Origin: an uncultured bacterium
GTDB taxonomy: Bacteria > Chlamydiota > Chlamydiia > Chlamydiales > JAJFMA01
Length of the DNA: 60,612 bases
Reading direction: 5' to 3'
Assembly (NCBI GenBank): GCA_964436955.1
Contig: CAYTFC010000006.1
Coordinates: 4,390-65,001 of the forward strand
Both the position numbers and the translations under genes were made by a program. The notes under the pieces were generated by a model. It did not search any database, was not told the origin of the DNA, and worked only from the letters and a program-made list of their open reading frames with translations. How positions within the stretch are numbered: position 1 is the stretch's first letter; every line of letters starts with the position of its first letter. Positions 5,757-28,523 of this stretch are shown one piece after another.

Positions 5757-6761
5757 TTGAGCAAGCCGGGATTTCGGGTAGGCGTCGATTTGATGGGGAG
5801 CGATAAAGCCCCCCAGCACTTCTTCGATGCCGTTGCCGAAACCACCCAGGAGTTTGGAGATGACGATCTACTTGTGGCCTTTGGCACCGAGAGCGTCATC
5901 TCTGAGCTCCAAAAAATCGTAAATTCAAGCCGATTGCGGTTTGAAGTCTGTACACAAGTCATCGAAATGGATGATGCGCCTCTAACGGCCATTCGCCAGA
6001 AGAAAGAATCCTCCATGATTTTAGGAATGCGACAATTGCGCGATGGCGCGATTGATGCATTGGTGTCTGCGGGAAATACCGGAGCATTGATAGCTAGCGG
6101 AGCCATTCTCTTGCCGATGTTGCCTGGGGTGGAGAGACCCGCATTGTTGGCAATGTTACCCACGCGAAAAGGCTTTGTTGTTGTGATTGATGTAGGCGGC
6201 AATGTTTCGTGTAAGCCGACACATCTTGTTCAGTTTGCACGTATGGCCGCAGGTTATCTTCGCAGTTATGGAGTAACAAACACGCCCACTGTGGGGTTGC
6301 TCAATATTGGTGAGGAGTCCCAAAAGGGCACACCGGAGGCGCGTCAAGCCTATGAAATGCTGCAAGGTGCCTGTACCGATAGTGAGGGAATGGCATTTTT
6401 GGGCAATATTGAAGGACGCGAAGTCTTTCAGGGTAAGGTCGACATCTTAGTGACGGATGGATTTACCGGTAATATTTTCTTAAAAGCATCGGAAGGTGTT
6501 TCGTTTTTTATTCTTGATTATTTGCACGATGCATTTAAAGAGGATCCTGATCCACGATTGGATAATGTGATACGCACGCTGCATAGCATTGTGGATTACA
6601 ATGAGTATCCTGGAGCTATTGTGAGTGGAGTGGATCGCATTTTGATTAAGTGTCATGGCAGTTCATCATCGAGTGCAATGCGGCGCGGATTGTTGGGAGC
6701 TCGCGACTTATTGCAAGCCGGTTGGCTCGATTCCATGCGTCATCAGCTAGAAGTTACCTAA
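5757..6761 (+). CDS. plsX: Phosphate acyltransferase PlsX
   Basis: VDLMGSDKAP, SAGNTGAL, GLLNIGEE, TDGFTGNIFLK, IKCHGSS. Confidence 0.96.
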   Translation: MSKPGFRVGVDLMGSDKAPQHFFDAVAETTQEFGDDDLLVAFGTESVISELQKIVNSSRLRFEVCTQVIEMDDAPLTAIRQKKESSMILGMRQLRDGAIDALVSAGNTGALIASGAILLPMLPGVERPALLAMLPTRKGFVVVIDVGGNVSCKPTHLVQFARMAAGYLRSYGVTNTPTVGLLNIGEESQKGTPEARQAYEMLQGACTDSEGMAFLGNIEGREVFQGKVDILVTDGFTGNIFLKASEGVSFFILDYLHDAFKEDPDPRLDNVIRTLHSIVDYNEYPGAIVSGVDRILIKCHGSSSSSAMRRGLLGARDLLQAGWLDSMRHQLEVT

Positions 6762-6785
6762 GATCTACATGTTCTGTTACACGTT

Positions 6786-6809
6786 GTAGCGCCGCTTCGC
6801 CGAAGCGGC
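6786..6809 (+). repeat. REP-like palindrome (GTAG + hairpin); may double as a terminator
   Basis: GTAG-C-GCCGCTTC-GCC-GAAGCGGC; tcgccgaagcggca recurs at 39952-39965. Confidence 0.55.
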
Positions 6810-6841
6810 ATTAACAAAGCGCGATTGGAAGCGTGGTTTAC

Positions 6842-7561
6842 TCAGTCGGGGATGAGCCATTCTAATGGAATTGAAATGGTGAAGAAGTCTTTCCAACGCT
6901 GAATTCTTTGGTCCCTCAAATCAGCTTTGGCAGCTAATTGCGGGTTTTGTATCCATAACAGGTGTCTATGAAGATCTTTTACCGATGAAAGATAGTTAGG
7001 CATAATCAAATGATAAACTGTGGCAATAGCCCAAAGCCCGCCAGCGCTAATCCCTATAGAGGTTCCCACAGCAACAGATAGAGTTTGTGTTGCTAAAAGA
7101 GATGGCGCAAAGAACAAAGTGCTAGCAGCACCAATCCCGATAAGAGTGCTTATGAAAACAGGCCACTTAAGGGCCGTTCCTATCATACATAGCGCCTCGT
7201 ATCCACCGTCAGGTAACATACCTAATCCTGTGACGATAAACAGGGTTGCTGGACCTCCTAGAATTAGTGTCATACCCTTTCCCAGCACTTCCAATGCTAT
7301 TTTTGGTATCGTCGCCACAGCGCTAACGCCATGAAGTACCATCATACCAGCATGATCTACGGGACCGTACTTTCCCGCGCTATATTGTTTTAAAAGCGGC
7401 TGAGAATGGCCGAATAGTGATACGAACATTGCAAATCCTCTTCGAAGTACATACACGATAGCATGCATATGTAAAGTGTCGGTAAATGATGCGATGCCTG
7501 CGGCAAAAATACCGGCTTTATTGCCGCAGGCCAATACGAGGGGTGAGTTAAATAAATCCAT
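6842..7561 (-). CDS. Hypothetical membrane protein with Inc-like long hydrophobic region, possibly 5'-truncated
   Basis: 239-aa ORF with extended hydrophobic hairpin (WPVFISTLIGIG...GGLWAIATVYHLI); no clear RBS, start abuts the intron remnant. Confidence 0.6.
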   Translation of the reverse strand: MDLFNSPLVLACGNKAGIFAAGIASFTDTLHMHAIVYVLRRGFAMFVSLFGHSQPLLKQYSAGKYGPVDHAGMMVLHGVSAVATIPKIALEVLGKGMTLILGGPATLFIVTGLGMLPDGGYEALCMIGTALKWPVFISTLIGIGAASTLFFAPSLLATQTLSVAVGTSIGISAGGLWAIATVYHLIMPNYLSSVKDLHRHLLWIQNPQLAAKADLRDQRIQRWKDFFTISIPLEWLIPD

Positions 7562-7579: not shown

Positions 7580-8390
7580 GTGAGTAGCCCCGCATGTAGT
7601 GGGGAGAGAGCAACATCAAAATTTTGAGTCGCGGAAGCGACGAGAGGTGCGCCTGTGAAGGCGCAGAATCAGTTTGATGAAAGTTCAAACCATAGGAGAC
7701 GACAACTATGTAGCAGAAAGTAACTGCGTCACCGTGAGGTGGGGTGGAGAGCAACTGGATGCGAAGAACCAGTCCGCAGGATGGCGAACTCGATTCGGCG
7801 GGATACCGTAGCGAGCCTCACTGTCGACGGCGAAGCTTGGAAAACACTTCTTGCGCTAGGACGTTAATAAGCGACAAGAGGACGGGTCACGTGTTTGGAG
7901 GTGGAATGGTTCGAAGGTTCTGCGATTAAGCAGGGATCACTTTAGGTGGATTGAGACACCTAAAGTTGACAGAACTCTCATAGTACCGATGACCGTAGGT
8001 CGAAACACGCGCATAACACAAGGCGCGTTTAGGGAAGGGGGGTAGGAAGATAGATGCCGAAAGGACATATAAACGTACCTTGAAAGACAGGAAGATTAGC
8101 CGCGAGCTAATCACACACGCGCAGGGAGCAACGCTAGTGAAAGAGATTTCTAAACAAGTTGCAGAGGCTACAGCCACTGAGACGAATGAGTCAGAAAAAG
8201 ACCTTCGAGCAAGATGGCACTGGGTTGAAACGAGTGTATGGACAATTAGCATGCTGACAGCCCTGGAAAACGGGGTGAAAGGAGGCAAGTGGTTTAGCCT
8301 TATAGATAAAGTCCACAAACCTAGCAATCTACAAGCAGCCTGAGTGCGAGTGCAGGCAAATAGTGGAGCAGCAGGGGTGGATAATATCTC
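7580..8390 (+). mobile_element. Truncated group II intron (5' ribozyme domains plus start of the RT ORF; DV/DVI absent)
   Basis: GTGCG at 7647 followed by gatgaaagttc and gcagaaagtaac domain I-like motifs; DIII-like catagtaccgatga...agggaagggg at ~7979-8040; downstream ORF has intron RT N-terminus; 5' boundary uncertain (7580 or 7647). Confidence 0.85.
8080..8390 (+). pseudogene. ltrA: Group II intron reverse transcriptase/maturase N-terminal fragment
   Basis: WVETSVWTISMLTALENGVKGGKWFSLIDKV...NLQAA*VRVQANSGAAGVDNIS = RT0 motif AWxxVxxNxGAAGVD with W codon mutated to TGA at 8341; homology ends ~8390. Confidence 0.85.
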
Positions 8391-8393
8391 GGA

Positions 8394-8637
8394 ACGTGAG
8401 TGATGTTACCCATTGCATCGCTATGCGCTGTGGGACGTCCTTGCGAGTTGTATTGGGTTTGGGTTACGGCAAAGGTAGATTCTGAGTCATATTTTGTGGT
8501 GAGGGTTTGGTTTCCCAGACGATCGTAGACATACGTTTCTTTGCTAAAAACTGTGCCGTACGCATCTTCGCTGCGCAGTTCTATAAGGCGATTAAGTGAA
8601 TCATGGCACTGGATTTGGGCGATATAGTCACTCTCCC
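8394..8637 (-). pseudogene. Rhs core (YD-repeat) fragment
   Basis: Ungapped homology to 12623-12866 of the Rhs gene; 62 of 81 aa identical by hand count. Confidence 0.9.
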
Positions 8638-8710
8638 TATGCTTCCGACTTGCCATTAGGGTTTGGAGCTTTTGAAAGCCTTTGCTCTTTGCCCAGCTGC
8701 GTAAATTCGG
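8634..8710 (-). pseudogene. Degenerate orphan toxin C-terminal fragment (copy 2)
   Basis: LRSWAKSKGFQKL(P)NPNGKSEA*GE with a 1-nt deletion and TGG>TAG, homologous to AKSKGFDKLPNPNGKPEAWGE at 9691-9753. Confidence 0.7.
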
Positions 8711-8763
8711 GCATTGTTTTGGATGGCTACGGATGAGTTTAGCATATTTTGATGAACAGTATT

Positions 8764-8988
8764 TCACAAAATTTCTATCCCATATATGACCCCATTGTCG
8801 TCGTGATCCATTACCAGTTCTCCACCGTCTTTTAATTCATAAACTTCCGATGTTAAATTTTGAGGACTTTCATCATAAAAATTTATGTACAATGCTGTCT
8901 CAGCGTCTACGCCCATCTGCCAATACTTCGCATAATCAGGATGATTCTTGATAATCTCAATTAGGGTTTTTATGTTAATTTGCGCCAT
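8764..8988 (-). CDS. Small acidic putative immunity/antitoxin protein, DUF2283-like
   Basis: ALYINF...GELVMDHDDNGVIYGIEIL resembles DUF2283; lies in the post-Rhs array. Confidence 0.6.
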   Translation of the reverse strand: MAQINIKTLIEIIKNHPDYAKYWQMGVDAETALYINFYDESPQNLTSEVYELKDGGELVMDHDDNGVIYGIEIL

Positions 8989-9021: not shown

Positions 9022-9504
9022 CTAGGAACTATTGAAAATATCGCTGCTATTAGAACCAAGCATTATGGGACGAAGCCAAATACCAATCAATTCTTTATCC
9101 TTAAGAGTCGCAACACAGTTTGGCGCAAATTCAACCATTCTCATGCCCACAATAGAAGGGTCACCAAGGCAAATCCAATGGTGTTCTTTATTCAGAAAAA
9201 TAGGCCAATTCCTGTTTAGTTCTAAGGATATCCCAGGAATGAGTTCCTTATCAAAACAAGCCTTTACAGCATTTGATGAGAAACTCTTGGGATATTCTCT
9301 AACCTCTTTATAGTGGATGAGAGGGCAATACCCAATTACTCCAAGCAGAGTCCCCTCAAAGTCGATGGTGAGCTCTAAAAAATTAATCAGAATCGAAGAG
9401 TACGCATATTCTGAAAAAGGTTCGGGACGAAAGGAGTATTCATCCGTATCATATACGAGAGTAAACTGTTCATTATTTTTGTTTTGTTGAATAATAAATT
9501 CCAT
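9022..9504 (-). CDS. Putative orphan immunity protein
   Basis: 160 aa, AT-rich, starts 5 nt after the stop of a toxin-tip remnant (9510); WICLGDP...VEF...GIWLRP. Confidence 0.7.
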   Translation of the reverse strand: MEFIIQQNKNNEQFTLVYDTDEYSFRPEPFSEYAYSSILINFLELTIDFEGTLLGVIGYCPLIHYKEVREYPKSFSSNAVKACFDKELIPGISLELNRNWPIFLNKEHHWICLGDPSIVGMRMVEFAPNCVATLKDKELIGIWLRPIMLGSNSSDIFNSS

Positions 9505-9509
9505 AAAAC

Positions 9510-9770
9510 CTATCTAAAGTTAAAGTAAAGAATAGTTTTAGTTTTGGGGTTAATTAACAGCTCATACGATCCATGAGAACCACGAAAGGTTCCGGGCACT
9601 TGCCAGTACATTAAGTTGGGTATTCGTTGAGGCTCAGGAATTGCCTTCGGACTTTATCTTCAATCTCCACTCAAATTTGCCGTTAATATATTCACCCCAT
9701 GCTTCTGGCTTTCCATTAGGATTAGGTAGCTTATCAAAGCCTTTGCTTTTTGCCGCAGGTCTCTGAGTTT
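9510..9770 (-). pseudogene. Two orphan toxin C-terminal remnants fused out of frame
   Basis: 9653-9510 reads SPKAIPEPQRIPNLMYWQVPGTFRGSHGSYELLINPKTKTILYFNFR*; 9753-9634 reads AKSKGFDKLPNPNGKPEAWGEYINGKFEWRLKIKSEGNS*; neither has a proper start. Confidence 0.65.
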
Positions 9771-9775
9771 TCTTC

Positions 9776-10159
9776 TCATGCTTTTGTCTCGAATTCAGCG
9801 CGCATATTTGTGTTTTCAATGGTCCAGCGAGTCCACTCACCGTCGATTTTGCTAAAACCACAGATAGAGACCGAAGAATTTGAAAATGATATGTCACAAA
9901 TATCCATTAAACTTTCTATGTTCAAATCGCTAACTTTAACCCAGTTGTTGAGCGCGTAAATGAATTTATTTACGGAGAGGTTTTGCCATTTGTCAAAGTG
10001 CATGGATCCCCTTCCCAATTCAATGCCCTTTTCAGCAGCCAACCAAGCCCCGTCAACAACAATGGTAAGTGATTTATGTTCAGTAGATAAATCCATCTTT
10101 TCCACATCAAAATCTGGAAAAGATAAATCCTTCATCTCGCTCGCTGTTAGGGATATCAT
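9776..10159 (-). CDS. Putative cognate immunity protein of the Rhs toxin
   Basis: 127-aa acidic ORF whose ATG overlaps the Rhs stop (ATGA). Confidence 0.8.
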   Translation of the reverse strand: MISLTASEMKDLSFPDFDVEKMDLSTEHKSLTIVVDGAWLAAEKGIELGRGSMHFDKWQNLSVNKFIYALNNWVKVSDLNIESLMDICDISFSNSSVSICGFSKIDGEWTRWTIENTNMRAEFETKA

Positions 10160-13100
10160 TTGTTATACTCTCCGTAAGGAATATGAGCTTGAGGGGATCG
10201 TCGTGATACGGGCTTTAAGCCTTTATTTAACGATTTTCCAGACTTATCATACAAATGTATGTGATGATATTTTGTAATAGCATCAGGTGGATGGATTTTC
10301 ACTCGAATATTACCAAACCTATCAAAGAAGGTTAAAAATTGAGCCTCGCTAGTTTGACCCGTGGCTTGTAGTCCAATGAATTCTAAATCCGCCACAATCT
10401 GCTGCTTAGATACTAACTCAATATTATTTAAATACTCATGAACTTTTGCTCTTGTCAAACACCTTGATGTACTCTTTGGAATTCTGCTGACATAATATAT
10501 GCCACGACCAAGGGAGTAGACTCCACTTGCTATGGCGGCCACTTGAAGTTCTGTGTGGAAATGTCCTGCTGACATATATCCGATTGAACCATCCTCGATT
10601 CCAAGCAGGTTTGCCATCCGACTATTAGCTTTTTCACATTGTTGCGCGTGGTAGTTGTCGACGGTATTTGCGATATCCCATCGCTCCGTTAGCGAATAAT
10701 CCGCATCAAAGCTGTGACTTTCGATATAGCTGGCTGAGCAGGCTAGCCCGTGTGTCATATCCATGGCAAACGAGCAGCCCCCAAGCGAAACACCTTTAGC
10801 AGCCTCAACAACATAGTGATTTTGCGGCCATATGTTAGCACGCCGGCAGCCAGATCTCTGACCTACATAAGAATCTTCTGTTTTTGCTCTGACACCAGCT
10901 TTTCCCCTATCCCTTCCCACGCTCAAACCAGCTCTATTGCGGTCGTGTAGTGATTGTTCAGATAGCCCCCAAGGATCTACCAAGGTCAGGGGATTGTTGT
11001 GGACATAGGCATAGAGGTTGGGGCCGTCTGTGAAGCCAATAGGGTCGGGAGTAATCCAGCGTCCTAAAGAAGGGCTGTAATAGCGTTTACCAAAATAGAT
11101 AAAGCCAGTCTCTGCATCGAGTCGCTTGCTAGCAAAGCCCCATGGGCATGCGATGCCTTCGGTTGCGGCTAACTCTCCAAAGGCGCTATAGCGATAGGTG
11201 GCCGCTACCTGGCCGGAATGAGCATCCAAGAGTGTGCAGATATTGCCTCGATGGTCATGCAAGGGCGCATATACGATGCCATTTAGTTCTATTGCGATGG
11301 CTGCTCCTAGTTCTGCTCCTTTACCACGTCCTAACACGCGCAGTTGCGTCATTACGCCTTTAGTCATGGCTCCAATTTCACGTTGGCCTTGATAAAGATA
11401 GGTTTCAAACAAGTCGGGTGTTTGTTTACTGAGTCGGCGTCCGAAGGAATCGTAGGTATAGGTGACGGAGAGGGTAGGTGATTCTACAGCAGTCAAGCGG
11501 TTTAAAGCATCGTATGTATAACGCGTGACTTGATCTCCGGCGGTTTTTTGCAGGAGGTTGCCATTCAAGTCGTATCGGTAGATGGCTTCGGAGTCATCCA
11601 GCACTTGATTCAATCGGCTGATGCGATAGGTTGCGTTGTCCTTCACGACTCGGTTGTCAATAGAATCATATCGATAGGTATGGGTTGTACTTCCGGTTTC
11701 CGAGATAAGTTGATTGAGGTCGCTATAGCGATACTGTTCTGTAGTGGCACCAAGGCTATCTCGCACTGTTGCAGATAAGAGATTGCCGACAGAGTCATAG
11801 CCCCCAATGGGTATTTCTTCGGTAAATGCAGTCGTCTGACTTAGGGATAGGCGTCCGAGTGCATCATAATTGCAATGTCGTGTGCCGGCATTGCCGATTA
11901 GCTGGGATTGGAGTTCACATCCGCGCCAATCATGTTGTGTATAAGTGTGTGTGTAGTCTGATCGAGAAACGCTTTTTAAATGAGGACCTTCATAAGCGTA
12001 GGTGATGGGGGTGTTGTCGGGTAAGTAGACTTGTTCGATGCGTCCAAGAGAATCGTAGAGATAGGTCGATGTTAGTCCTGTGGCTAATGTTTCTCCGACC
12101 AAATGATTCAGTGCATCATACTGGCGTGTGGTGGTGTGACCAGCCACGAGGTCATCACTTTGTAGCAGGTTGCTATTTAGGTCATAGACATACCTATAGG
12201 ATATTGTCCCATCTGAAGATGCGAGTGTTTGTAAGTGTCCCCATGAGTCGTATGTATGTCGAAAGGTGATTCCATCAGGTTTGGTGATTGTGAGGAGTCG
12301 TCCAAAGCGGTCATAACATTGAAGCGTGGTTTTGGTAAGTTCGTCTCCACCGGATTCGCAGGTATACACAACACGTCCCATGCTGTCATGTTCCCAACGG
12401 ATGATGTAATCATGTGTGGCTGCGCCATTTACAAAGACGGTTTCGCGCTGCACGTTTTTGTTACCTACAACATCATACCCAAAGGTTTGTCGAGCTGTGG
12501 TGATGCCAAAAGGGTTACGCTTTTCGATTTTTATCACGCGATGTAAGGCATCGTAAGTTTCGTGCTGAATATTCCCTAAGGGATCAGTGATGTTTTTTTC
12601 GTACAACCTGTCGCTATACGTGATGTGAGTGACGTTACCTAAAGCATCAACTTGCTCTGTGGGTTGGCTCTGCGAATTGAAGTGCGTTTTTGTTACAGCA
12701 TATGTCGACTCTGAGTCATATGTAGCTGTGAGGGTTTGGTTTCCGAGCCGATCATAGGCGTAGGTTTCTTTGCTAAAAACTGTGCCATACGCATCTTCGC
12801 TGCGCAGTTCCACAACTCGATTAAGCGAGTCGTAGCATTGGATTTGGGCAATGAAGTCGCTTTCACCACTCCATTGCTTGGTGATGGAAAGGCGTCCCAA
12901 GGAATCGTACGCATAGGTAGTTTTCTGGTTTCCCTTGACTTCAAGAATTTTGCGTCCTGCTGCATCATAAGCATATTGGGTTTCAGCGCCCATGGGGTCG
13001 GTTTCGCTGATGAGTTGAGCTCCGCGATAGCGTCTAAACGTGCGGTATTGCAGCTTTCCGTTGGTATCTGAGGTTTGCGTTTCCACAACGCGGTTGCAAC

Positions 13101-15525
13101 CATCATAGATATAGTGATGGCATAGCCCTTCTTTTTCCCATTTCTTTTCGACTGTGCCGTTCAGATGATACTGATTACGTTCTTCGCTGCCATCGGGATA
13201 ACAAATGCAAACGGGTTGCCCACGCACGTTATAGGTGGTTGTGGTGCGATTTCCGTTTTGATCTATTACGGCAGTGAGCTGATCGAGCTGATTATATTCT
13301 TTGCGTACGGTGCGCTGTTGTTCGGCGCGTCCTTCGGTTTCTGGATAGATGACCGCGATTTGATTGCCGAGTGTGTCGTATTGAAAGCGTGTGAGGTTGC
13401 CATAGCGGTCTGTTTCGGAAATCTTATTTCCAACAAGATCGTAAGCGTAGTGTATGGCTAGGTGAGTGCCGTCTGAATGGTGTTCTTCGGTTTTGATCAG
13501 TCGATTAACCGCATCGTAAGTGAATGTGGTGCGGAATCCGCTATTGAGATGTTCTTCTTCGATTTTGTTGCTGTAGATGTCGTAACGCATTCTAACGACT
13601 TGGCCTAAGGCATCTGTTTGCTCAATGAGATTGCGTCTTGCGTCGTAGGCATATTCTAAACTATAAGCAAAGACATCCTGCGCATCGTAGACAGTTTGAC
13701 GTGTCAGAAGGTTTTGGTTGTTGTATTCGTGTTCGATACGTTTGAGTTGCTTGCGATCGCCGGTTTGAAGGTCAATGTATCCTTCGATGGTGGTTTTAGG
13801 GAAACCAATGGCAGGGCCTTCTAGACGGGGTATGATGGTAGTAAAAGTGCGGCTAGTTACCCCGGTTAAGTCATTAGGATTGGCTGAGATGCCATCATCG
13901 ACGATGGTTTCAGTTAGGAGGTGATCACTGCTATAAGAACGAAATTCACGGTGATAATAACCGGTGGAATTTCCATTTAAGATTGAAGTGACCAGGTTTG
14001 TATTGGGTAAATAGCTGTAATCGGTCAGCAGACCGTCAGATGTTTGCTCACGCGAGGCCAAGTTAAAGCCATCTGTGGAATAGGTGATGTAACGCGAAAA
14101 ACATTCTGTCGGTTCATTTGGACGATGATTACCATTCAGTTTAAAACTAGGAGGTGCATTGCCGGTGAGGTTGCCATAAAGGTCATCTTGCACAATGTTG
14201 CCGCGATCATATGTAGCGACACTGCAATAGAGAAAGCGATCATCGGCGGTTGCGACGCCTTTGGCGAGTAAGTACCCTTGATGAGGTTCGTTGGTTTCCC
14301 AGAAAAAGCAGGTTTTAGAAAGCACTTGATGCTTGATCATACGCCATATGGCTGTGATGCGCTTTTCAGGGGTAAAATGGTATGTGGTGCGCGCGCCTAA
14401 TGCATCATAAACATCGGTGTGTGCTGGGGCATATGCGAATGAAGCGATGGGTACTAGAGCATTTCCTTGACCGGCAGGCGCCAGCAACTGGCTCACTTTA
14501 ATTTCTCCGTAGTTGATCTGAAGGCGTGTTCTGTCAGGATCGTCAATTCTGAGAAGTTTGCGCCACCGCCCTTTGCCTCCCTTCTTTTCAACGTAGTTAT
14601 AATGAAGATGGCATGTCACTCCGTCAGGGGAGGTGATACTCTTCACAAATAATGTCGAGGGGTTTTGGTCTTTATAATGACACTTTAGGATATGCATGTC
14701 GTATTGAAGGGTTTGCCCATCGCTAGAGGTGATTCTTCCGTTGTTGATGTCGATGGTAGAAAACGTGAGCGTTCCAGAGGGATTTGTGGCGCGCATCCGA
14801 CTAAGATCGCCGTGTTGGTCATACTCATAGAAAATACGATGACCGTTTGGTAGTCGTTCTTCATTTAGACGCCATGATTGTTGATAGCCTGGTTTGTTAT
14901 AATAGGTACGAAGTCCTCCAGAGCCCAGCTTTAGTTGGCACGTGCCACCTAAAATTTCGTTTGCCCTGTAGAGTTCGCCATTTTGGTCGTAGCGATGGCC
15001 ATTGAAAACATAGCCGGTGAAATCGATTGTCCTTTTCTTGATGCAGTCGCATCCTGGAATACCAGCGGTTGCGTAGTTGGTGTAGCCATGTTTATTAAGA
15101 GAGGTGGATTCGGCAACAGCTTGAGTAAATCCCGAGCCCATGCGACCCTTATAGATAACGCTAGCACCCTCTTGCTCTTCGATGGAAATTTTGCACTCGG
15201 ATACGTTTTGAACAGTTTTATAGGGAACGATACCGTGAATTTTGAGGGGCAATTCCGTTCCAAAGCCCCGTCCTTGTGGAGGGTTTTCACGTCCATCTCC
15301 AGTGTCATAAGAGCGGTTGTAGCGCAAAGGGACGACAGCGTTTACTTGCAAGGCGTTGTCTGAAAGAAAGAAGTCTCCTGTGACGACGTTCACACAGTTG
15401 TAAACAGATGTTAATGGTTCGGAATTGGCCCCCAAGCGCATATCTGGAAGGGTTTGATTATCCTCGGCAAAGCAAATACAGGGGAGAAGTAGAAGTAAGA
15501 TCAGTGATGAGATTGTTTTGTGCAT
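10156..15525 (-). CDS. rhs: Rhs/YD-repeat polymorphic toxin with N-terminal signal peptide and putative Ntox30-like RNase tip
   Basis: Many YD repeats; RYYSPSLGRWITPDPIG...NLYAYVHNNPLTLVDPWGL core end (~10963); ~268-aa C-terminal region ending KIH...HHIH...SPQAHIP; N-terminus MHKTISSLILLLLLPCICFA. Confidence 0.95.
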   Translation of the reverse strand: MHKTISSLILLLLLPCICFAEDNQTLPDMRLGANSEPLTSVYNCVNVVTGDFFLSDNALQVNAVVPLRYNRSYDTGDGRENPPQGRGFGTELPLKIHGIVPYKTVQNVSECKISIEEQEGASVIYKGRMGSGFTQAVAESTSLNKHGYTNYATAGIPGCDCIKKRTIDFTGYVFNGHRYDQNGELYRANEILGGTCQLKLGSGGLRTYYNKPGYQQSWRLNEERLPNGHRIFYEYDQHGDLSRMRATNPSGTLTFSTIDINNGRITSSDGQTLQYDMHILKCHYKDQNPSTLFVKSITSPDGVTCHLHYNYVEKKGGKGRWRKLLRIDDPDRTRLQINYGEIKVSQLLAPAGQGNALVPIASFAYAPAHTDVYDALGARTTYHFTPEKRITAIWRMIKHQVLSKTCFFWETNEPHQGYLLAKGVATADDRFLYCSVATYDRGNIVQDDLYGNLTGNAPPSFKLNGNHRPNEPTECFSRYITYSTDGFNLASREQTSDGLLTDYSYLPNTNLVTSILNGNSTGYYHREFRSYSSDHLLTETIVDDGISANPNDLTGVTSRTFTTIIPRLEGPAIGFPKTTIEGYIDLQTGDRKQLKRIEHEYNNQNLLTRQTVYDAQDVFAYSLEYAYDARRNLIEQTDALGQVVRMRYDIYSNKIEEEHLNSGFRTTFTYDAVNRLIKTEEHHSDGTHLAIHYAYDLVGNKISETDRYGNLTRFQYDTLGNQIAVIYPETEGRAEQQRTVRKEYNQLDQLTAVIDQNGNRTTTTYNVRGQPVCICYPDGSEERNQYHLNGTVEKKWEKEGLCHHYIYDGCNRVVETQTSDTNGKLQYRTFRRYRGAQLISETDPMGAETQYAYDAAGRKILEVKGNQKTTYAYDSLGRLSITKQWSGESDFIAQIQCYDSLNRVVELRSEDAYGTVFSKETYAYDRLGNQTLTATYDSESTYAVTKTHFNSQSQPTEQVDALGNVTHITYSDRLYEKNITDPLGNIQHETYDALHRVIKIEKRNPFGITTARQTFGYDVVGNKNVQRETVFVNGAATHDYIIRWEHDSMGRVVYTCESGGDELTKTTLQCYDRFGRLLTITKPDGITFRHTYDSWGHLQTLASSDGTISYRYVYDLNSNLLQSDDLVAGHTTTRQYDALNHLVGETLATGLTSTYLYDSLGRIEQVYLPDNTPITYAYEGPHLKSVSRSDYTHTYTQHDWRGCELQSQLIGNAGTRHCNYDALGRLSLSQTTAFTEEIPIGGYDSVGNLLSATVRDSLGATTEQYRYSDLNQLISETGSTTHTYRYDSIDNRVVKDNATYRISRLNQVLDDSEAIYRYDLNGNLLQKTAGDQVTRYTYDALNRLTAVESPTLSVTYTYDSFGRRLSKQTPDLFETYLYQGQREIGAMTKGVMTQLRVLGRGKGAELGAAIAIELNGIVYAPLHDHRGNICTLLDAHSGQVAATYRYSAFGELAATEGIACPWGFASKRLDAETGFIYFGKRYYSPSLGRWITPDPIGFTDGPNLYAYVHNNPLTLVDPWGLSEQSLHDRNRAGLSVGRDRGKAGVRAKTEDSYVGQRSGCRRANIWPQNHYVVEAAKGVSLGGCSFAMDMTHGLACSASYIESHSFDADYSLTERWDIANTVDNYHAQQCEKANSRMANLLGIEDGSIGYMSAGHFHTELQVAAIASGVYSLGRGIYYVSRIPKSTSRCLTRAKVHEYLNNIELVSKQQIVADLEFIGLQATGQTSEAQFLTFFDRFGNIRVKIHPPDAITKYHHIHLYDKSGKSLNKGLKPVSRRSPQAHIPYGEYNK

Positions 15526-25947: not shown

Positions 25948-27222
25948 TTAGAGCTGTCCTACGCCCTTGCTCAATTTAACCTCGGGTTGAATTCGCTCTA
26001 AGTTTTTAAGCTGAGTACCTATATCTCCTATATCTTTATGTTTCTTTTGGAAATCTTTTTTTAAATCAGATGGTAAATCGTTGACAATGCTTCTCAATAA
26101 TGTGCCACTACTAATCAGCGCTTTTGTTAGTTCATTTTTTTCTTCGCCCTGCGAATTTTCATATTTCACCAAATTAGTTTTAAAGCTATTGTAATGACTG
26201 TCCGCTGCTTTAAATAATAATGCATTTACTTTAGATATAGAGTTATCATCAAAGTTGTTTCTGATGTAAGAAGTCGCCATCTGGTCTGGAGACGTCTTTT
26301 GATCTATAGCTAATGCAGCTTTTTCTTTTTCATATTGCGACTTAATAATTGTTCTTACCAAAACTTGTTCGGAAGGTGGAAGAATTGTTTTTTTATTCAC
26401 AATCATTTCATATTCTATAATTTTCTGAGTATCAATTTTTACTTTTTCTAGATGTTCTTGGTAACCTGGTCTTTTTGTATACTCTTTTTCAGCTGCTGTT
26501 AATGGTGCTTCATTTTTTATTTTTTTAAATTCCTCTGGTGGAAAGGCAGGATCAGGTATTTCAGGATCACCATATAATTCATTTTCCTTTCTCAAGTCTT
26601 CAATTTTCTTTGAGTTTACACTGATAATTCTAAATGTATTAATTATGGCTTTATCTAATGGAGCTTTTACTACTTCTCGCATTTGCTTATTTAATTTTGG
26701 ATCGGGCACAAGGGTGTCAATTTGTGACATGAATTTGCCTTCAAATGCTTGCATTTTTTCTTGTAAATCTATTCCTCTCTGAGTATTACCTATTCTTTCT
26801 GATGAATTACTATGCACAAGAGCATTTCTAATTTTTGAAATTCCATATGAATTATTTTTAAGATCTGAGTTAATTTTATTCATAGAATTTCCTAAGCATA
26901 ATAAACGTACATTTTTTTTGGAAATATCTATATTTGAATGGATTAAATTATCTGGTACTAATTTTGAGATATTACTTTCTTTATGACTAACTGCAAATTG
27001 ATTGGATTCGTGTTTGCTATCTACATTAACTGACTTTGGAATATTAGATGAGGTCGAAATTTTATTTTGTGCAAACTCGTGCGTTTTTTCGGATATTTCG
27101 TGCATAGATAAAGGCGGTGTTTCAATTTGCGTTGTTTGATGTTCTGAAATAGCTTCATTTTTTGTTTCAGATCCAATATGAGATAATTCAATAGATAAAT
27201 TTCTTCCTGGCAAGCTTTCCAT
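25948..27222 (-). CDS. Hypothetical AT-rich protein, candidate T3SS effector
   Basis: 424 aa, Ser/Asn/Lys-rich low-complexity N-terminus, markedly lower GC than flanking core genes. Confidence 0.7.
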   Translation of the reverse strand: MESLPGRNLSIELSHIGSETKNEAISEHQTTQIETPPLSMHEISEKTHEFAQNKISTSSNIPKSVNVDSKHESNQFAVSHKESNISKLVPDNLIHSNIDISKKNVRLLCLGNSMNKINSDLKNNSYGISKIRNALVHSNSSERIGNTQRGIDLQEKMQAFEGKFMSQIDTLVPDPKLNKQMREVVKAPLDKAIINTFRIISVNSKKIEDLRKENELYGDPEIPDPAFPPEEFKKIKNEAPLTAAEKEYTKRPGYQEHLEKVKIDTQKIIEYEMIVNKKTILPPSEQVLVRTIIKSQYEKEKAALAIDQKTSPDQMATSYIRNNFDDNSISKVNALLFKAADSHYNSFKTNLVKYENSQGEEKNELTKALISSGTLLRSIVNDLPSDLKKDFQKKHKDIGDIGTQLKNLERIQPEVKLSKGVGQL

Positions 27223-27409
27223 AAATATTGCCCTTATAAAATTGGTATCTCATCGAGCAGGCTTATCCCTATATAAAATATTATATAATATAAATTTTTA
27301 TGATGAAACACATATATATATCATATATGAGTCATATATGTAGATTATTTCTTAATAATAAGTATAGTCATGATTATAATGCAGTAATATTATCAAATAT
27401 AATAATGGT

Positions 27410-27472
27410 TTGATCGATAGATGCTTGCTGTTAGTAGAAGGCTTGAGTGTATGAGAGTTCGTGAGCACGTAC
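27410..27472 (+). repeat. 63-bp direct repeat, copy 1
   Basis: 59/63 identical to 28722-28784. Confidence 0.9.
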
Positions 27473-27608
27473 AAAGTTTCCGCGGTTGGTTCATCGTAAG
27501 TCGTTTAATATTAGAAATATGAACCTATTTAAGATGACCCAATTCCCGAACTTTCTATCTTGGGGAAAATCGGAACTTTCTAAATTGCGCGTACAACGCT
27601 CAAAGTAA

Positions 27609-27637
27609 TAGACAAACAATAGTATATGCATTAGAAT
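27609..27637 (+). promoter_or_regulatory. Putative sigma66/70 promoter
   Basis: TAGACA-N17-TAGAAT upstream of AAGGA RBS and ATG 27660. Confidence 0.55.
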
Positions 27638-27659
27638 TTATGAAAAAAAAGGATGTTAT

Positions 27660-28523
27660 ATGGAGCCTTATAAAATAAATAGAACTCACTCAAATCAGTG
27701 GTGGTCTTTTCAAGGATTCATGGAAGATCCCCACCATAAGCTTGAATATCCAGACAGGTCTAACTGTGTTGCAGCGTGTCAGCTATATCAATCTTTGCAC
27801 ATTCAAAAGGACGGCATTACTGGTATAATTGCCATGCTTCCGTTTTTCATTGTATATAGAAAAAGTGCTGCCTTCGACGCTTACACAAAAATATTTTGTA
27901 TAAAAGTGATTAAGGATCTTATGATTACAAAAGGTATCAATAAGGGAAGCCCTAGCTGGATGTTCATGGAAGGTCTTGCGAGCCCCCTTATCGATCAGGT
28001 TTTGGCCTGCCACCATAACGAACTTAAGATTGGGGGATGTTCTAGTGATGCTAATAGCCGTGAACTAGAAGAAAATGAAATTCCCCAATGGATTGAAGAT
28101 GAAGCTGGAAAGTTTTTGAATGAAGATTTTTTTCCGGAACAAGCTGTCAGGATTTCAAAAAAAATCATGACGATGCTTCCATTAGTGATTCGTAGGGTTG
28201 AGACGGTTAGAAACTGGTCTCATCAGGACAGGAGGAATCGCATTTGTCAATTAGTGGATAGGCTTTTAGTTAACGATGAGATTGACCCGGAATTTAAAAA
28301 TGATGTCATTTTGCCAGCAGTAGCGGAGATCGTGGATCTTTTATGGAAAACATGCAATCGGGGAGTAGATCTTGAGAGGGCATTTATTAAGCCTGAGCAT
28401 CCTACTCATACGGCACATGATTTAAGTGGTTATTATACGGATGAGGGGGAATGGAAATTTTATGAAACCAAGAAAAATTGGGCACAGAAAATAGCAGGCT
28501 TTTTTCGTATAGGCAGGCGATAG
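27660..28523 (+). CDS. Hypothetical protein
   Basis: 287-aa ORF with promoter and RBS; no recognised domain. Confidence 0.75.
   Translation: MEPYKINRTHSNQWWSFQGFMEDPHHKLEYPDRSNCVAACQLYQSLHIQKDGITGIIAMLPFFIVYRKSAAFDAYTKIFCIKVIKDLMITKGINKGSPSWMFMEGLASPLIDQVLACHHNELKIGGCSSDANSRELEENEIPQWIEDEAGKFLNEDFFPEQAVRISKKIMTMLPLVIRRVETVRNWSHQDRRNRICQLVDRLLVNDEIDPEFKNDVILPAVAEIVDLLWKTCNRGVDLERAFIKPEHPTHTAHDLSGYYTDEGEWKFYETKKNWAQKIAGFFRIGRR

Follow-up and report, generated by a model that had tools for sequence, protein, structure and literature searches.

RHS-repeat toxins of chlamydiae have been catalogued before: in the accessible part of their survey, Zhang et al. 2012 list more than 10 chlamydial toxin domains with RHS repeats and trafficking of the 'T2SS' (type II secretion system) category, which there denotes a signal peptide alone, and portray Waddlia-like intracellular bacteria as carrying many toxins and hardly any immunity proteins. 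According to the accessible text of Heinz et al. 2009, an RHS family is among the predicted chlamydial outer-membrane proteins, and the corresponding text of de Barsy et al. 2016 places Waddlia rhs9 among the validated targets of Euo. Our literature search, which had most subscription journals outside its reach, recovered neither a functional study of a chlamydial Rhs protein nor an experimental export route for a signal-peptide Rhs protein in a diderm bacterium. The closest described toxin domain is PT7(Bc), which is linked to an LXG carrier; PT7 is toxic to both Escherichia coli and yeast, and its mutants are non-specific, Mg-dependent endo-DNases that are abolished by EDTA and have no activity on tRNA (10.1101/2021.10.19.465003). 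The occurrence named in the accessible portion of that report comprises Firmicutes and Proteobacteria, and its supplements may name more taxa. Here we analyze a stretch of 60,612 nucleotides (the window) on contig C6 (CAYTFC010000006.1) of an uncultured member of the Chlamydiales, whose genome assembly has 3.05 Mb in 149 contigs with 44.8% GC and is 98.75% complete. It carries an rhs gene whose product, P0001, combines a predicted Sec-type signal with an Rhs shell and a tip of the PT7 family, and this gene is followed by a putative immunity gene, P0002 (Table 1).

By its sequence features, the rhs gene is an intact polymorphic toxin gene with a predicted Sec-type signal. Its open reading frame (ORF) opens with the first start past an in-frame upstream stop, an ATG preceded 9 nt 5' by AGGAG, and encodes RHS repeats that are recognized by both Pfam (PF05593 RHS_repeat, E 3.4e-62) and NCBIfam (TIGR01643, E 2.3e-40). 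The DUF6531 domain scores 23.6 bits in the whole protein and 24.4 bits in the N-terminal 475 amino acids (aa) alone, against a Pfam cut-off of 24.1. Within the Rhs-associated core are two putative aspartyl autoprotease motifs, DPIGF at residue 1494 and DPWGL at residue 1517. The enterobacterial RHS_core equivalog of NCBIfam gives P0001 128 bits against a cut-off of 2000, and by this score P0001 appears to be a distant relative of those proteins, not a member of that equivalog. A sequence-only reading of this DNA had described a complete Rhs protein with a classical signal peptide, DPIG and DPWG motifs, and KIH and AHIP motifs in its tip. The protein is indeed complete, a signal peptide is predicted, and all four motifs are present, KIH and AHIP at residues 1743-1745 and 1780-1783.

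The N terminus of P0001, MHKTISSLILLLLLPCICFA/EDNQ (the slash marks the putative cleavage site), combines a basic n-region with an uncharged hydrophobic core of 16 residues, whose mean Kyte-Doolittle value is 2.67, and with small residues at positions -3 and -1. In an AlphaFold model built on a 27-row alignment, residues 4-18 form a lone helix, which is followed by a low-confidence stretch and then by beta structure. The pattern recurs across the family, as our heuristic script for the n-h-c pattern found signal-like N termini in 28 of 31 family proteins longer than 900 aa; the other three are two N-terminally truncated calls (P0004 and P0006) and one protein with a long upstream extension (P0021). 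A lipoprotein reading of this N terminus was ruled out, as Pro and Ile stand at -1 before the two cysteines and there is no lipobox. Pfam detected no PAAR, SpvB, or other trafficking domain in P0001, and the AlphaFold model of aa 1-480 (predicted local distance difference test score [pLDDT] of 76.2) matched solely Rhs, teneurin, and TcB/TcC shells, with RhsA (7q97; E 2.1e-13) and Rhs1 (7pq5) as the best matches. In this model, the N-terminal 450 aa contain no hidden delivery domain, in line with the earlier supposition that no adaptor domain of a type VI secretion system (T6SS) would be found there.

The C-terminal tip is the most informative part of the protein. The last 274 aa of P0001 matched no Pfam model, Ntox30 included, at E<=10, a negative bounded by the HMMER filters, which discard most matches above about E 0.1. 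When 1.84 billion cluster representatives were searched exhaustively with HMMER, 246 proteins were recovered at E<=1e-3, 82 of them at E<=1e-10, and nearly all of the 246 match just the last ~100 residues. Forty-five of these homologues were scanned with Pfam, and no model covered the tip domain in any of them; their N-terminal parts contain RHS repeats, SpvB/TcdB with RHS, PAAR, Tox-PAAR-like, LXG, PT-TG, PT-HINT, haemagglutinin repeats, or ankyrin repeats, a set that by domain content covers polymorphic-toxin carriers in their full range. In a 43-row alignment of the domain (A1), the R, PPD, HxH, G, L, and HI positions are near-invariant, and P0001 retains every one of these residues (R1741, P1746, P1747, D1748, H1755, H1757, G1763, L1766, H1781, and I1782). 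A profile of this alignment run against the Protein Data Bank (PDB) retrieved the Bacillus cereus PT7(Bc)-PIM7(Bc) structure 8owu at E 1.8e-30 with 38-40% identity. The AlphaFold model of the tip (pLDDT 81.7) matched chain C of the same entry in Foldseek (E 1.3e-6; template modeling score of 0.90 on the target) and in VIA-align (Z 12.4, root mean square deviation of 1.4 Å over 76/76 residues, the entire solved chain), where the next match had a Z score of only 4.4. Together, the profile and the modeled fold identify the last ~100 aa of P0001 as a predicted member of the PT7 toxin family. By our reading of the profile-PDB alignment, H47, one of the residues mutated in PT7(Bc), aligns with the conserved His1755, and D37, the other, with His1745. 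By homology to PT7 the tip would be a Mg-dependent DNase. When the tip sequence alone was used to look for related loci, a single one emerged, in a metagenome-assembled genome of the Lentisphaeria.

Directly behind the toxin gene, the ATG of P0002 overlaps the rhs stop codon. The encoded protein is acidic, with an isoelectric point of 4.63 against 9.63 for the toxin domain; it matched nothing in Pfam, NCBIfam, or the PDB by sequence, and a single-sequence word-index search found P0002 alone. A search of 200 genomes of the phylum with the PT7-domain profile yielded matches in 24 genomes at E<=1e-3, and strong ones (E <= 2.3e-37) in six, namely, the present genome and a further five, from five families. 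At each of these five other loci, a P0002 homologue of 123-129 aa starts 2-4 nt past the toxin stop, with 27-44% identity to P0002 and E values from 9e-16 to 3e-39, and at one of them a second copy stands behind an orphan tip fragment. This recurrence behind five of five other chlamydial PT7 tips points to P0002 as the putative cognate immunity protein of the PT7 tip, a pairing that is new here. A seven-row profile of the family (A3) retrieved 14 unnamed clusters among 5.8 billion. Neither P0002 alone nor this profile matched any chain of 8owu, PIM7 included, at E<=10, so that at the sequence level P0002 belongs to an immunity family different from PIM7.

The locus is one of many in this genome, in which RHS repeats occur on 13 contigs and 14 long Rhs ORFs range from 769 to 1848 aa. 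Nine of the 14 have an intact N terminus, and all nine open with a hydrophobic signal-like segment; the remaining five are N-terminally incomplete. In 13 of the 14, no more than about 16 nt separate the stop codon from the start of an ORF of at least 55 aa, the exception being the copy on contig C95. Compared with the three full-length paralogues on contig C1, P0001 shows 84-100% identity over the aligned first ~1100 residues, and in aligned 100-aa windows identity stays at 61-100% up to residue 1500, drops to 37-51% in residues 1501-1600, and ends at 19-25% in the last two windows (the last ~190 residues); one window of the 1655-aa C1 copy does not align to P0001. A 915-aa fragment on contig C136, aligned from about residue 800, behaves likewise, with 85-95%, then 36%, and then 25-30% identity. 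As judged from these sequence comparisons, the pattern is one of classical tip displacement with orphan cassettes.

Several paralogues display features of their own. In the one at C1:100825-105790, an Ile codon (...SRIHKTISS...) takes the place of the start Met of near-identical copies; this paralogue is also about 140 aa shorter and may be inactive. Downstream of an 1800-aa Rhs gene on C1 are at least three related ORFs of ~105-130 aa in tandem, which share the motif LLD..AREDERDDAAM.LG with ORFs behind related tips on C1 and C98 and, by sequence, look like a poly-immunity array. The tips on C20, C51, and C109 have a GxSxG-like motif, seen by eye only, on which a lipase-like reading of them rests; a Pfam scan gave one sub-threshold DUF687 match for the C20 tip and none for that of C51. 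The ORFs behind these three tips begin with signal-peptide-like or lipoprotein-like segments, which would fit periplasmic immunity proteins.

We then considered how such a protein could leave the cell. Since lpxB and other lipid A genes adjoin the rhs gene, the organism is a diderm. PAAR and VgrG families, which the sequence-only reading had reported as missing near the gene, are found neither in P0001 nor in the 13 neighboring ORFs nor anywhere in the genome; EagR/DUF1795 was not searched genome-wide. More generally, VipB/TssC, PAAR, Phage_GPD/VgrG, Hcp, Phage_sheath_1, and SpvB each gave zero matches in the 98.75%-complete genome, which agrees with the proposal of a polymorphic toxin in a diderm that lacks the usual T6SS or Tc route and uses an uncharacterized outer-membrane route. 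Two secretin genes are present, one of which heads a gspD-E-F operon with T2SSE (E 8.8e-137), T2SSF (E 4.3e-49), a T2SSJ-like gene, and pseudopilin-like ORFs. An ORF at C72:6650-13723 encodes an unusually long secretin of 2357 aa, in which the GspD N0, Secretin_N, and Secretin domains are confined to the last ~750 residues and follow an N-terminal part of ~1600 aa. The T2SS is the sole candidate outer-membrane route that we identified, a new route being equally possible.

The phylum at large shows a similar contrast between RHS repeats and T6SS markers. The only two homologues with a named source come from Chlamydiales/Chlamydiae metagenome-assembled genomes, in keeping with the chlamydial placement of the organism. 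Among the 200 scored genomes (G005 was not scored in the RHS and VipB searches), RHS repeats are present in 151 genomes and in 101 of 114 genera; the family is found in most of the phylum, outside the Chlamydia-like genus, with 0 of 23 genomes positive in the small-genome genus g4 and 1 of 28 in its family. VipB/TssC was found in 8 of the 200 (E 1e-101 to 1e-113), spread over five families, and so a minority encode a T6SS-type sheath; it was not found in two other genomes of the same genus as ours (G064 and G166). With RHS in 151 genomes and TssC in eight, the machine usually invoked for Rhs delivery is for the most part absent, which makes chlamydiae a clean case.

On the basis of these observations, we consider it probable, if by no means assured, that P0001 is a Sec-exported Rhs toxin that delivers a PT7 DNase into neighboring cells, with P0002 protecting the producer and its kin. 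The precursor would cross the inner membrane by Sec, fold in the periplasm around its tip, cleave itself at DPWGL, and, with no T6SS involved, arrive at the cell surface or in the medium through the T2SS or a new route. The Mg-dependent DNase tip would then enter neighboring cells, of which other chlamydiae, or bacteria living alongside the producer in one host cell, are the likeliest targets, and P0002 would guard the producer and its kin. Both the outer-membrane route and the target are points that we infer. Features typical of conflict systems accompany the locus, namely, eroded copies of the PT7 tip end and of P0002 on contigs C59 and C52 and the tandem arrays of small ORFs behind other tips. 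A tentative and rather doubtful extension is that environmental chlamydiae throughout the phylum use signal-peptide Rhs proteins as a weapon that is independent of the T6SS. Through the T2SS or an undescribed route, they would drive tips such as the PT7 DNase into rival chlamydiae or into other endosymbionts of a shared host cell, and dedicated immunity families such as P0002 would decide on the coexistence of strains; if true, bacteria would be waging contact-dependent warfare within a eukaryotic cell.

A different target is conceivable, in that the Rhs cocoon might carry the DNase into the eukaryotic host, an amoeba or another protist, with P0002 preventing self-intoxication before export. 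PT7 is toxic to yeast as well as to E. coli (10.1101/2021.10.19.465003), Zhang et al. 2012, in its accessible part, takes the many toxins carried by Waddlia and other intracellular bacteria to be host-directed, and the phylum consists of obligate intracellular bacteria. We nevertheless regard an anti-host role as unlikely, because the orphan tip and immunity remnants at the locus and the eroded cassette copies elsewhere are the usual marks of interbacterial conflict, as are the tandem related small ORFs behind other tips and the conservation of the toxin-immunity pair across families. Moreover, chlamydiae usually reach into the host by type III secretion, not by way of a Sec signal. Alternatively, the protein could be a surface or periplasmic Rhs with a mainly structural or adhesive, teneurin-like role, its tip undelivered or the family decaying. 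The placement of an RHS family among predicted outer-membrane proteins in the accessible text of Heinz et al. 2009, the teneurin matches in the fold search, and the truncation of several paralogues, one with an Ile codon at the start position, would all agree with such a role. This reading becomes quite improbable in view of the intact near-invariant PT7 residues, the intact and translationally coupled immunity gene, and the exchange of tips on shells that stay 61-100% identical, which argues for selection on the toxin end.

Two further proposals concern the delivery apparatus and the chemistry of the tip. Delivery by a T6SS, an extracellular contractile injection system, or a Tc system whose genes happen to be missing from the 149-contig assembly could be entertained for a draft genome in a phylum where eight of 200 members have VipB. 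This would, however, require six independent marker families to have escaped an assembly of 98.75% completeness, and the predicted Sec signal, the lack of a PAAR or SpvB domain in P0001, the absence of VipB from G064 and G166, and the disparity between RHS (151/200) and VipB (8/200) all speak against it, making it very improbable. Even harder to credit is the suggestion of the sequence-only reading that the tip is an Ntox30-like, metal-independent RNase. It drew on the similarity of KIH and AHIP to the 'RxH, R THIP' signature given for Ntox30 in the accessible part of Zhang et al. 2012. In contrast, no Pfam family matched the tip at E<=10, none covers the domain in any of the 43 aligned proteins, and both sequence and fold match PT7, which, as described in the accessible text, is an EDTA-sensitive DNase inactive on tRNA (10.1101/2021.10.19.465003). 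The resemblance to Ntox30 is a look-alike of motifs only.

Several considerations weigh against the favored reading of a Sec-exported DNase toxin aimed at neighboring bacteria. All of its support comes from computation on sequences and structure models, and the signal-peptide calls were made with our own n-h-c heuristic script, not with a dedicated predictor such as SignalP. The folded Rhs cocoon, at ~190 kDa, would be near or above the size that a T2SS secretin usually passes. In the 4 kb upstream of each of the nine ORFs with at least 1600 aa, no accessory gene is conserved (0 cross-locus matches among 58 ORFs). The PT7(Bc) residue D37, another of those mutated, aligns with His1745 in a column that is H in most A1 rows shown and D in the remainder, so that a chemistry identical to that of PT7(Bc) is an assumption only. 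PIM7 did not block the PT7 mutants in vitro, according to the accessible text of that study (10.1101/2021.10.19.465003), and since any DNase needs an immunity gene whatever its target, P0002 alone does not prove a bacterial one. Finally, no metagenome contig examined spans the repeated Rhs core, so that the linkage of N terminus and tip is an inference of the metagenome assembly, and the PT7 tip could belong to the N terminus of another paralogue. Even with a swapped tip, the conclusion at the level of the family would hold, since the intact paralogues all share one architecture.

The metagenome runs examined are from groundwater and freshwater, and no RNA run is listed with the locus. In run X1, which contains most of the locus, depth is 26-28 on the unique parts, that is, the flanks, the tip (10161-11101), and the immunity gene, and rises to 45-130 over the Rhs shell, as a collapse of the paralogues would produce. 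On one contig, the DUF374 gene and lpxB are joined to the start of the rhs gene (its first 33 nt), and the join on the plsX side runs through a ~55-bp repeat at 6765-6820. This repeat, a palindrome just past plsX, has 137 blastn hits in the genome and a depth of 2085 in run X1 against ~27 in its flanks; many contigs end there, and their continuations differ. Next to it, 6815-7559 is replaced by 12 other letters in a joined form in runs X1 (depth 28.3) and X5 (depth 3). The variably present ORF inside this segment (6842-7561, 239 aa) looks hydrophobic by eye and matched nothing in Pfam or NCBIfam.

The remainder of the island reads as a collection of cassette debris (Table 1). Among the orphan tip remnants, 9637-9771 encodes 45 aa that share 87% identity with the tip of one of the C1 paralogues. 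Copies of the 160-aa ORF occur on C52 (85%) and C59 (79% and 42%), and the small ORF that follows it in the island has a sub-threshold DUF2283 match. In the probable group II intron fragment, the frame 8080-8343 includes 37 aa with 59.5% identity to annotated ltrA reverse transcriptases; the fragment had no Rfam match at either of two thresholds and no second copy in the genome, and it probably marks the island as rearranged DNA. The island is flanked by plsX (5757-6761, plus strand) and, on the minus strand, by a DUF374 gene, lpxB, and genes for a GT2 glycosyltransferase and a poly(A) polymerase. A promoter and terminator scan found none above the shuffled background, with four promoter-like sites against 10.7 expected. 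Elsewhere in the window, GC falls to 0.318 at 26001-28000 from about 0.46.

Table 1. Features of the Rhs island, in window coordinates, with the evidence for each
Feature	Coordinates	Strand	Basis
rhs gene (P0001), 1789 aa	10156..15525 (stop codon included)	-	ORF, Pfam, NCBIfam
Putative Sec-type signal peptide (aa 1-20) with a putative cleavage site behind CFA	15466..15525	-	Heuristic script; lone helix 4-18 in model
DUF6531 domain, aa 43-91	15253..15399	-	Pfam
Beta-rich N-terminal region and YD-repeat shell, aa ~92-1445	11191..15252	-	RHS_repeat; model of aa 1-480
Rhs-associated core, aa 1446-1521	10963..11190	-	TIGR03696, E 2.5e-25 (NCBIfam)
Linker/pre-toxin region, 164 aa, aa 1522-1685	10471..10962	-	No Pfam match at E<=10
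Predicted PT7-family toxin domain, aa 1686-1789	10159..10470	-	Profile, fold, conserved residues
P0002, putative cognate immunity gene, 127 aa	9776..10159	-	ATG overlaps rhs stop (ATGA); conserved pairing
Frameshifted remnants of orphan toxin tips	9510..9771	-	Sequence reading
160-aa ORF, probable orphan immunity gene	9022..9504	-	Copies elsewhere; no family match
Duplicated Rhs-shell fragment, similar to P0001 aa ~890-970	8321..8767	-	RHS_repeat, 22 bits
Probable truncated 5' fragment of a group II intron	7600..8340	+	ltrA similarity

Comparison with relatives indicates how the island came to lie between plsX and lpxB. The two genes are on one contig, 62-4673 bp apart, in 14 of the 24 relatives searched, and less than 1.7 kb apart in 12. 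Three other genomes of the same genus have gaps of 840, 1088, and 1628 bp, and in one congener the gap contains the DUF374 gene alone; in the present genome it measures 9560 bp. By this gene order the ancestral junction is a conserved plsX-DUF374-lpxB arrangement, and as the island is missing from three of three congeners, it is a recent insertion peculiar to this genome. One congener, G201, has a genome of ~4.0 Mb in three contigs, one of 3.9 Mb, which is large for this phylum.

The sequence-only reading had placed the rhs gene in the slot where Chlamydia has pmpD/pmp21. The positional part of this claim has a counterpart in one of five g4 genomes: in this genus, whose members have 1.0-1.3-Mb genomes and include one encoding a Chlam_PMP autotransporter, G018 has the order lpxB, two DUF1539/DUF1548 genes, a 1406-aa polymorphic membrane protein (PMP) autotransporter, and plsX within ~7 kb. 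The lpxB-plsX distance is 22-41 kb in three other g4 genomes and ~480 kb in G006. With all three congeners free of the island, the shared position carries no functional meaning, and it reflects two independent insertions, of Rhs and of PMP, at an ancestral junction, not a shared function.

As for novelty, the claim of an undescribed system does not stand: Zhang et al. 2012 and Heinz et al. 2009 already list chlamydial RHS proteins, and the family has 14 long members in this genome and occurs in 151 of 200 genomes. Signal-peptide RHS toxins of chlamydiae are thus already known, and what is new here is the pairing with P0002. The finding extends PT7 beyond its reported range, to a phylum, a carrier, and an immunity family that are all new for it, and PT7-P0002 constitutes a small toxin/antidote pair that is directly testable in E. 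coli. The conserved pair also argues against the published impression that such intracellular bacteria carry toxins without immunity genes; strains would then be in competition within their hosts. The whole class of signal-peptide Rhs proteins shares the question of how a ~190-kDa cocoon leaves a diderm cell and how its tip enters the target.

Set against known systems, P0001 combines elements that are otherwise found apart. Its tip is homologous to the toxin domain of PT7(Bc)-PIM7(Bc) and has the motifs R-x-[KR]-I-x-P-P-D, H-x-H-x-Y-D, and A-H-I-P in common with it, whereas PT7(Bc) is an LXG protein of the type VII secretion system (T7SS) in a Gram-positive bacterium and P0001 is an Rhs protein with a predicted signal peptide in a diderm; the two also differ in the D37/His1745 position and in their immunity proteins, PIM7 and P0002, which have no sequence similarity. 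By general description, not by sequence, P0001 resembles the WapA-type Sec-exported Rhs proteins of Gram-positive bacteria, which have the signal peptide that is predicted for P0001 and likewise DUF6531, a YD shell, a variable tip, and a downstream immunity gene and need no contractile machine. Unlike the WapA producers, the bacterium that encodes P0001 has an outer membrane, as the adjoining lipid A genes indicate, so that a further export step is required.

The T6SS effectors RhsA (7q97), Rhs1 (7pq5), Tse5 (8cp6), and Tse15 (8uy4) are the best matches of aa 1-480 (E 2e-13 to 3e-10) and have an Rhs core with a DPxGL motif in common with P0001, which, in contrast to them, lacks PAAR, prePAAR, and VgrG-binding domains and is encoded in a genome devoid of T6SS genes. 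In the Tc toxins, a YD-repeat cocoon formed by TcB-TcC encloses and cleaves off a toxic tip; these are weaker structural matches, and unlike their BC component, P0001 is without the SpvB/TcdB N-terminal domains, SpvB being absent from the genome as well. The chlamydial 'T2SS' RHS toxins of Zhang et al. 2012 belong to the same architecture class and the same phylum as P0001. PT7 is not among the toxin domains in the accessible part of that survey, and in contrast to its picture of toxins with hardly any immunity proteins, 13 of the 14 long paralogues studied here are followed by a close small ORF and the PT7-P0002 pair is conserved.

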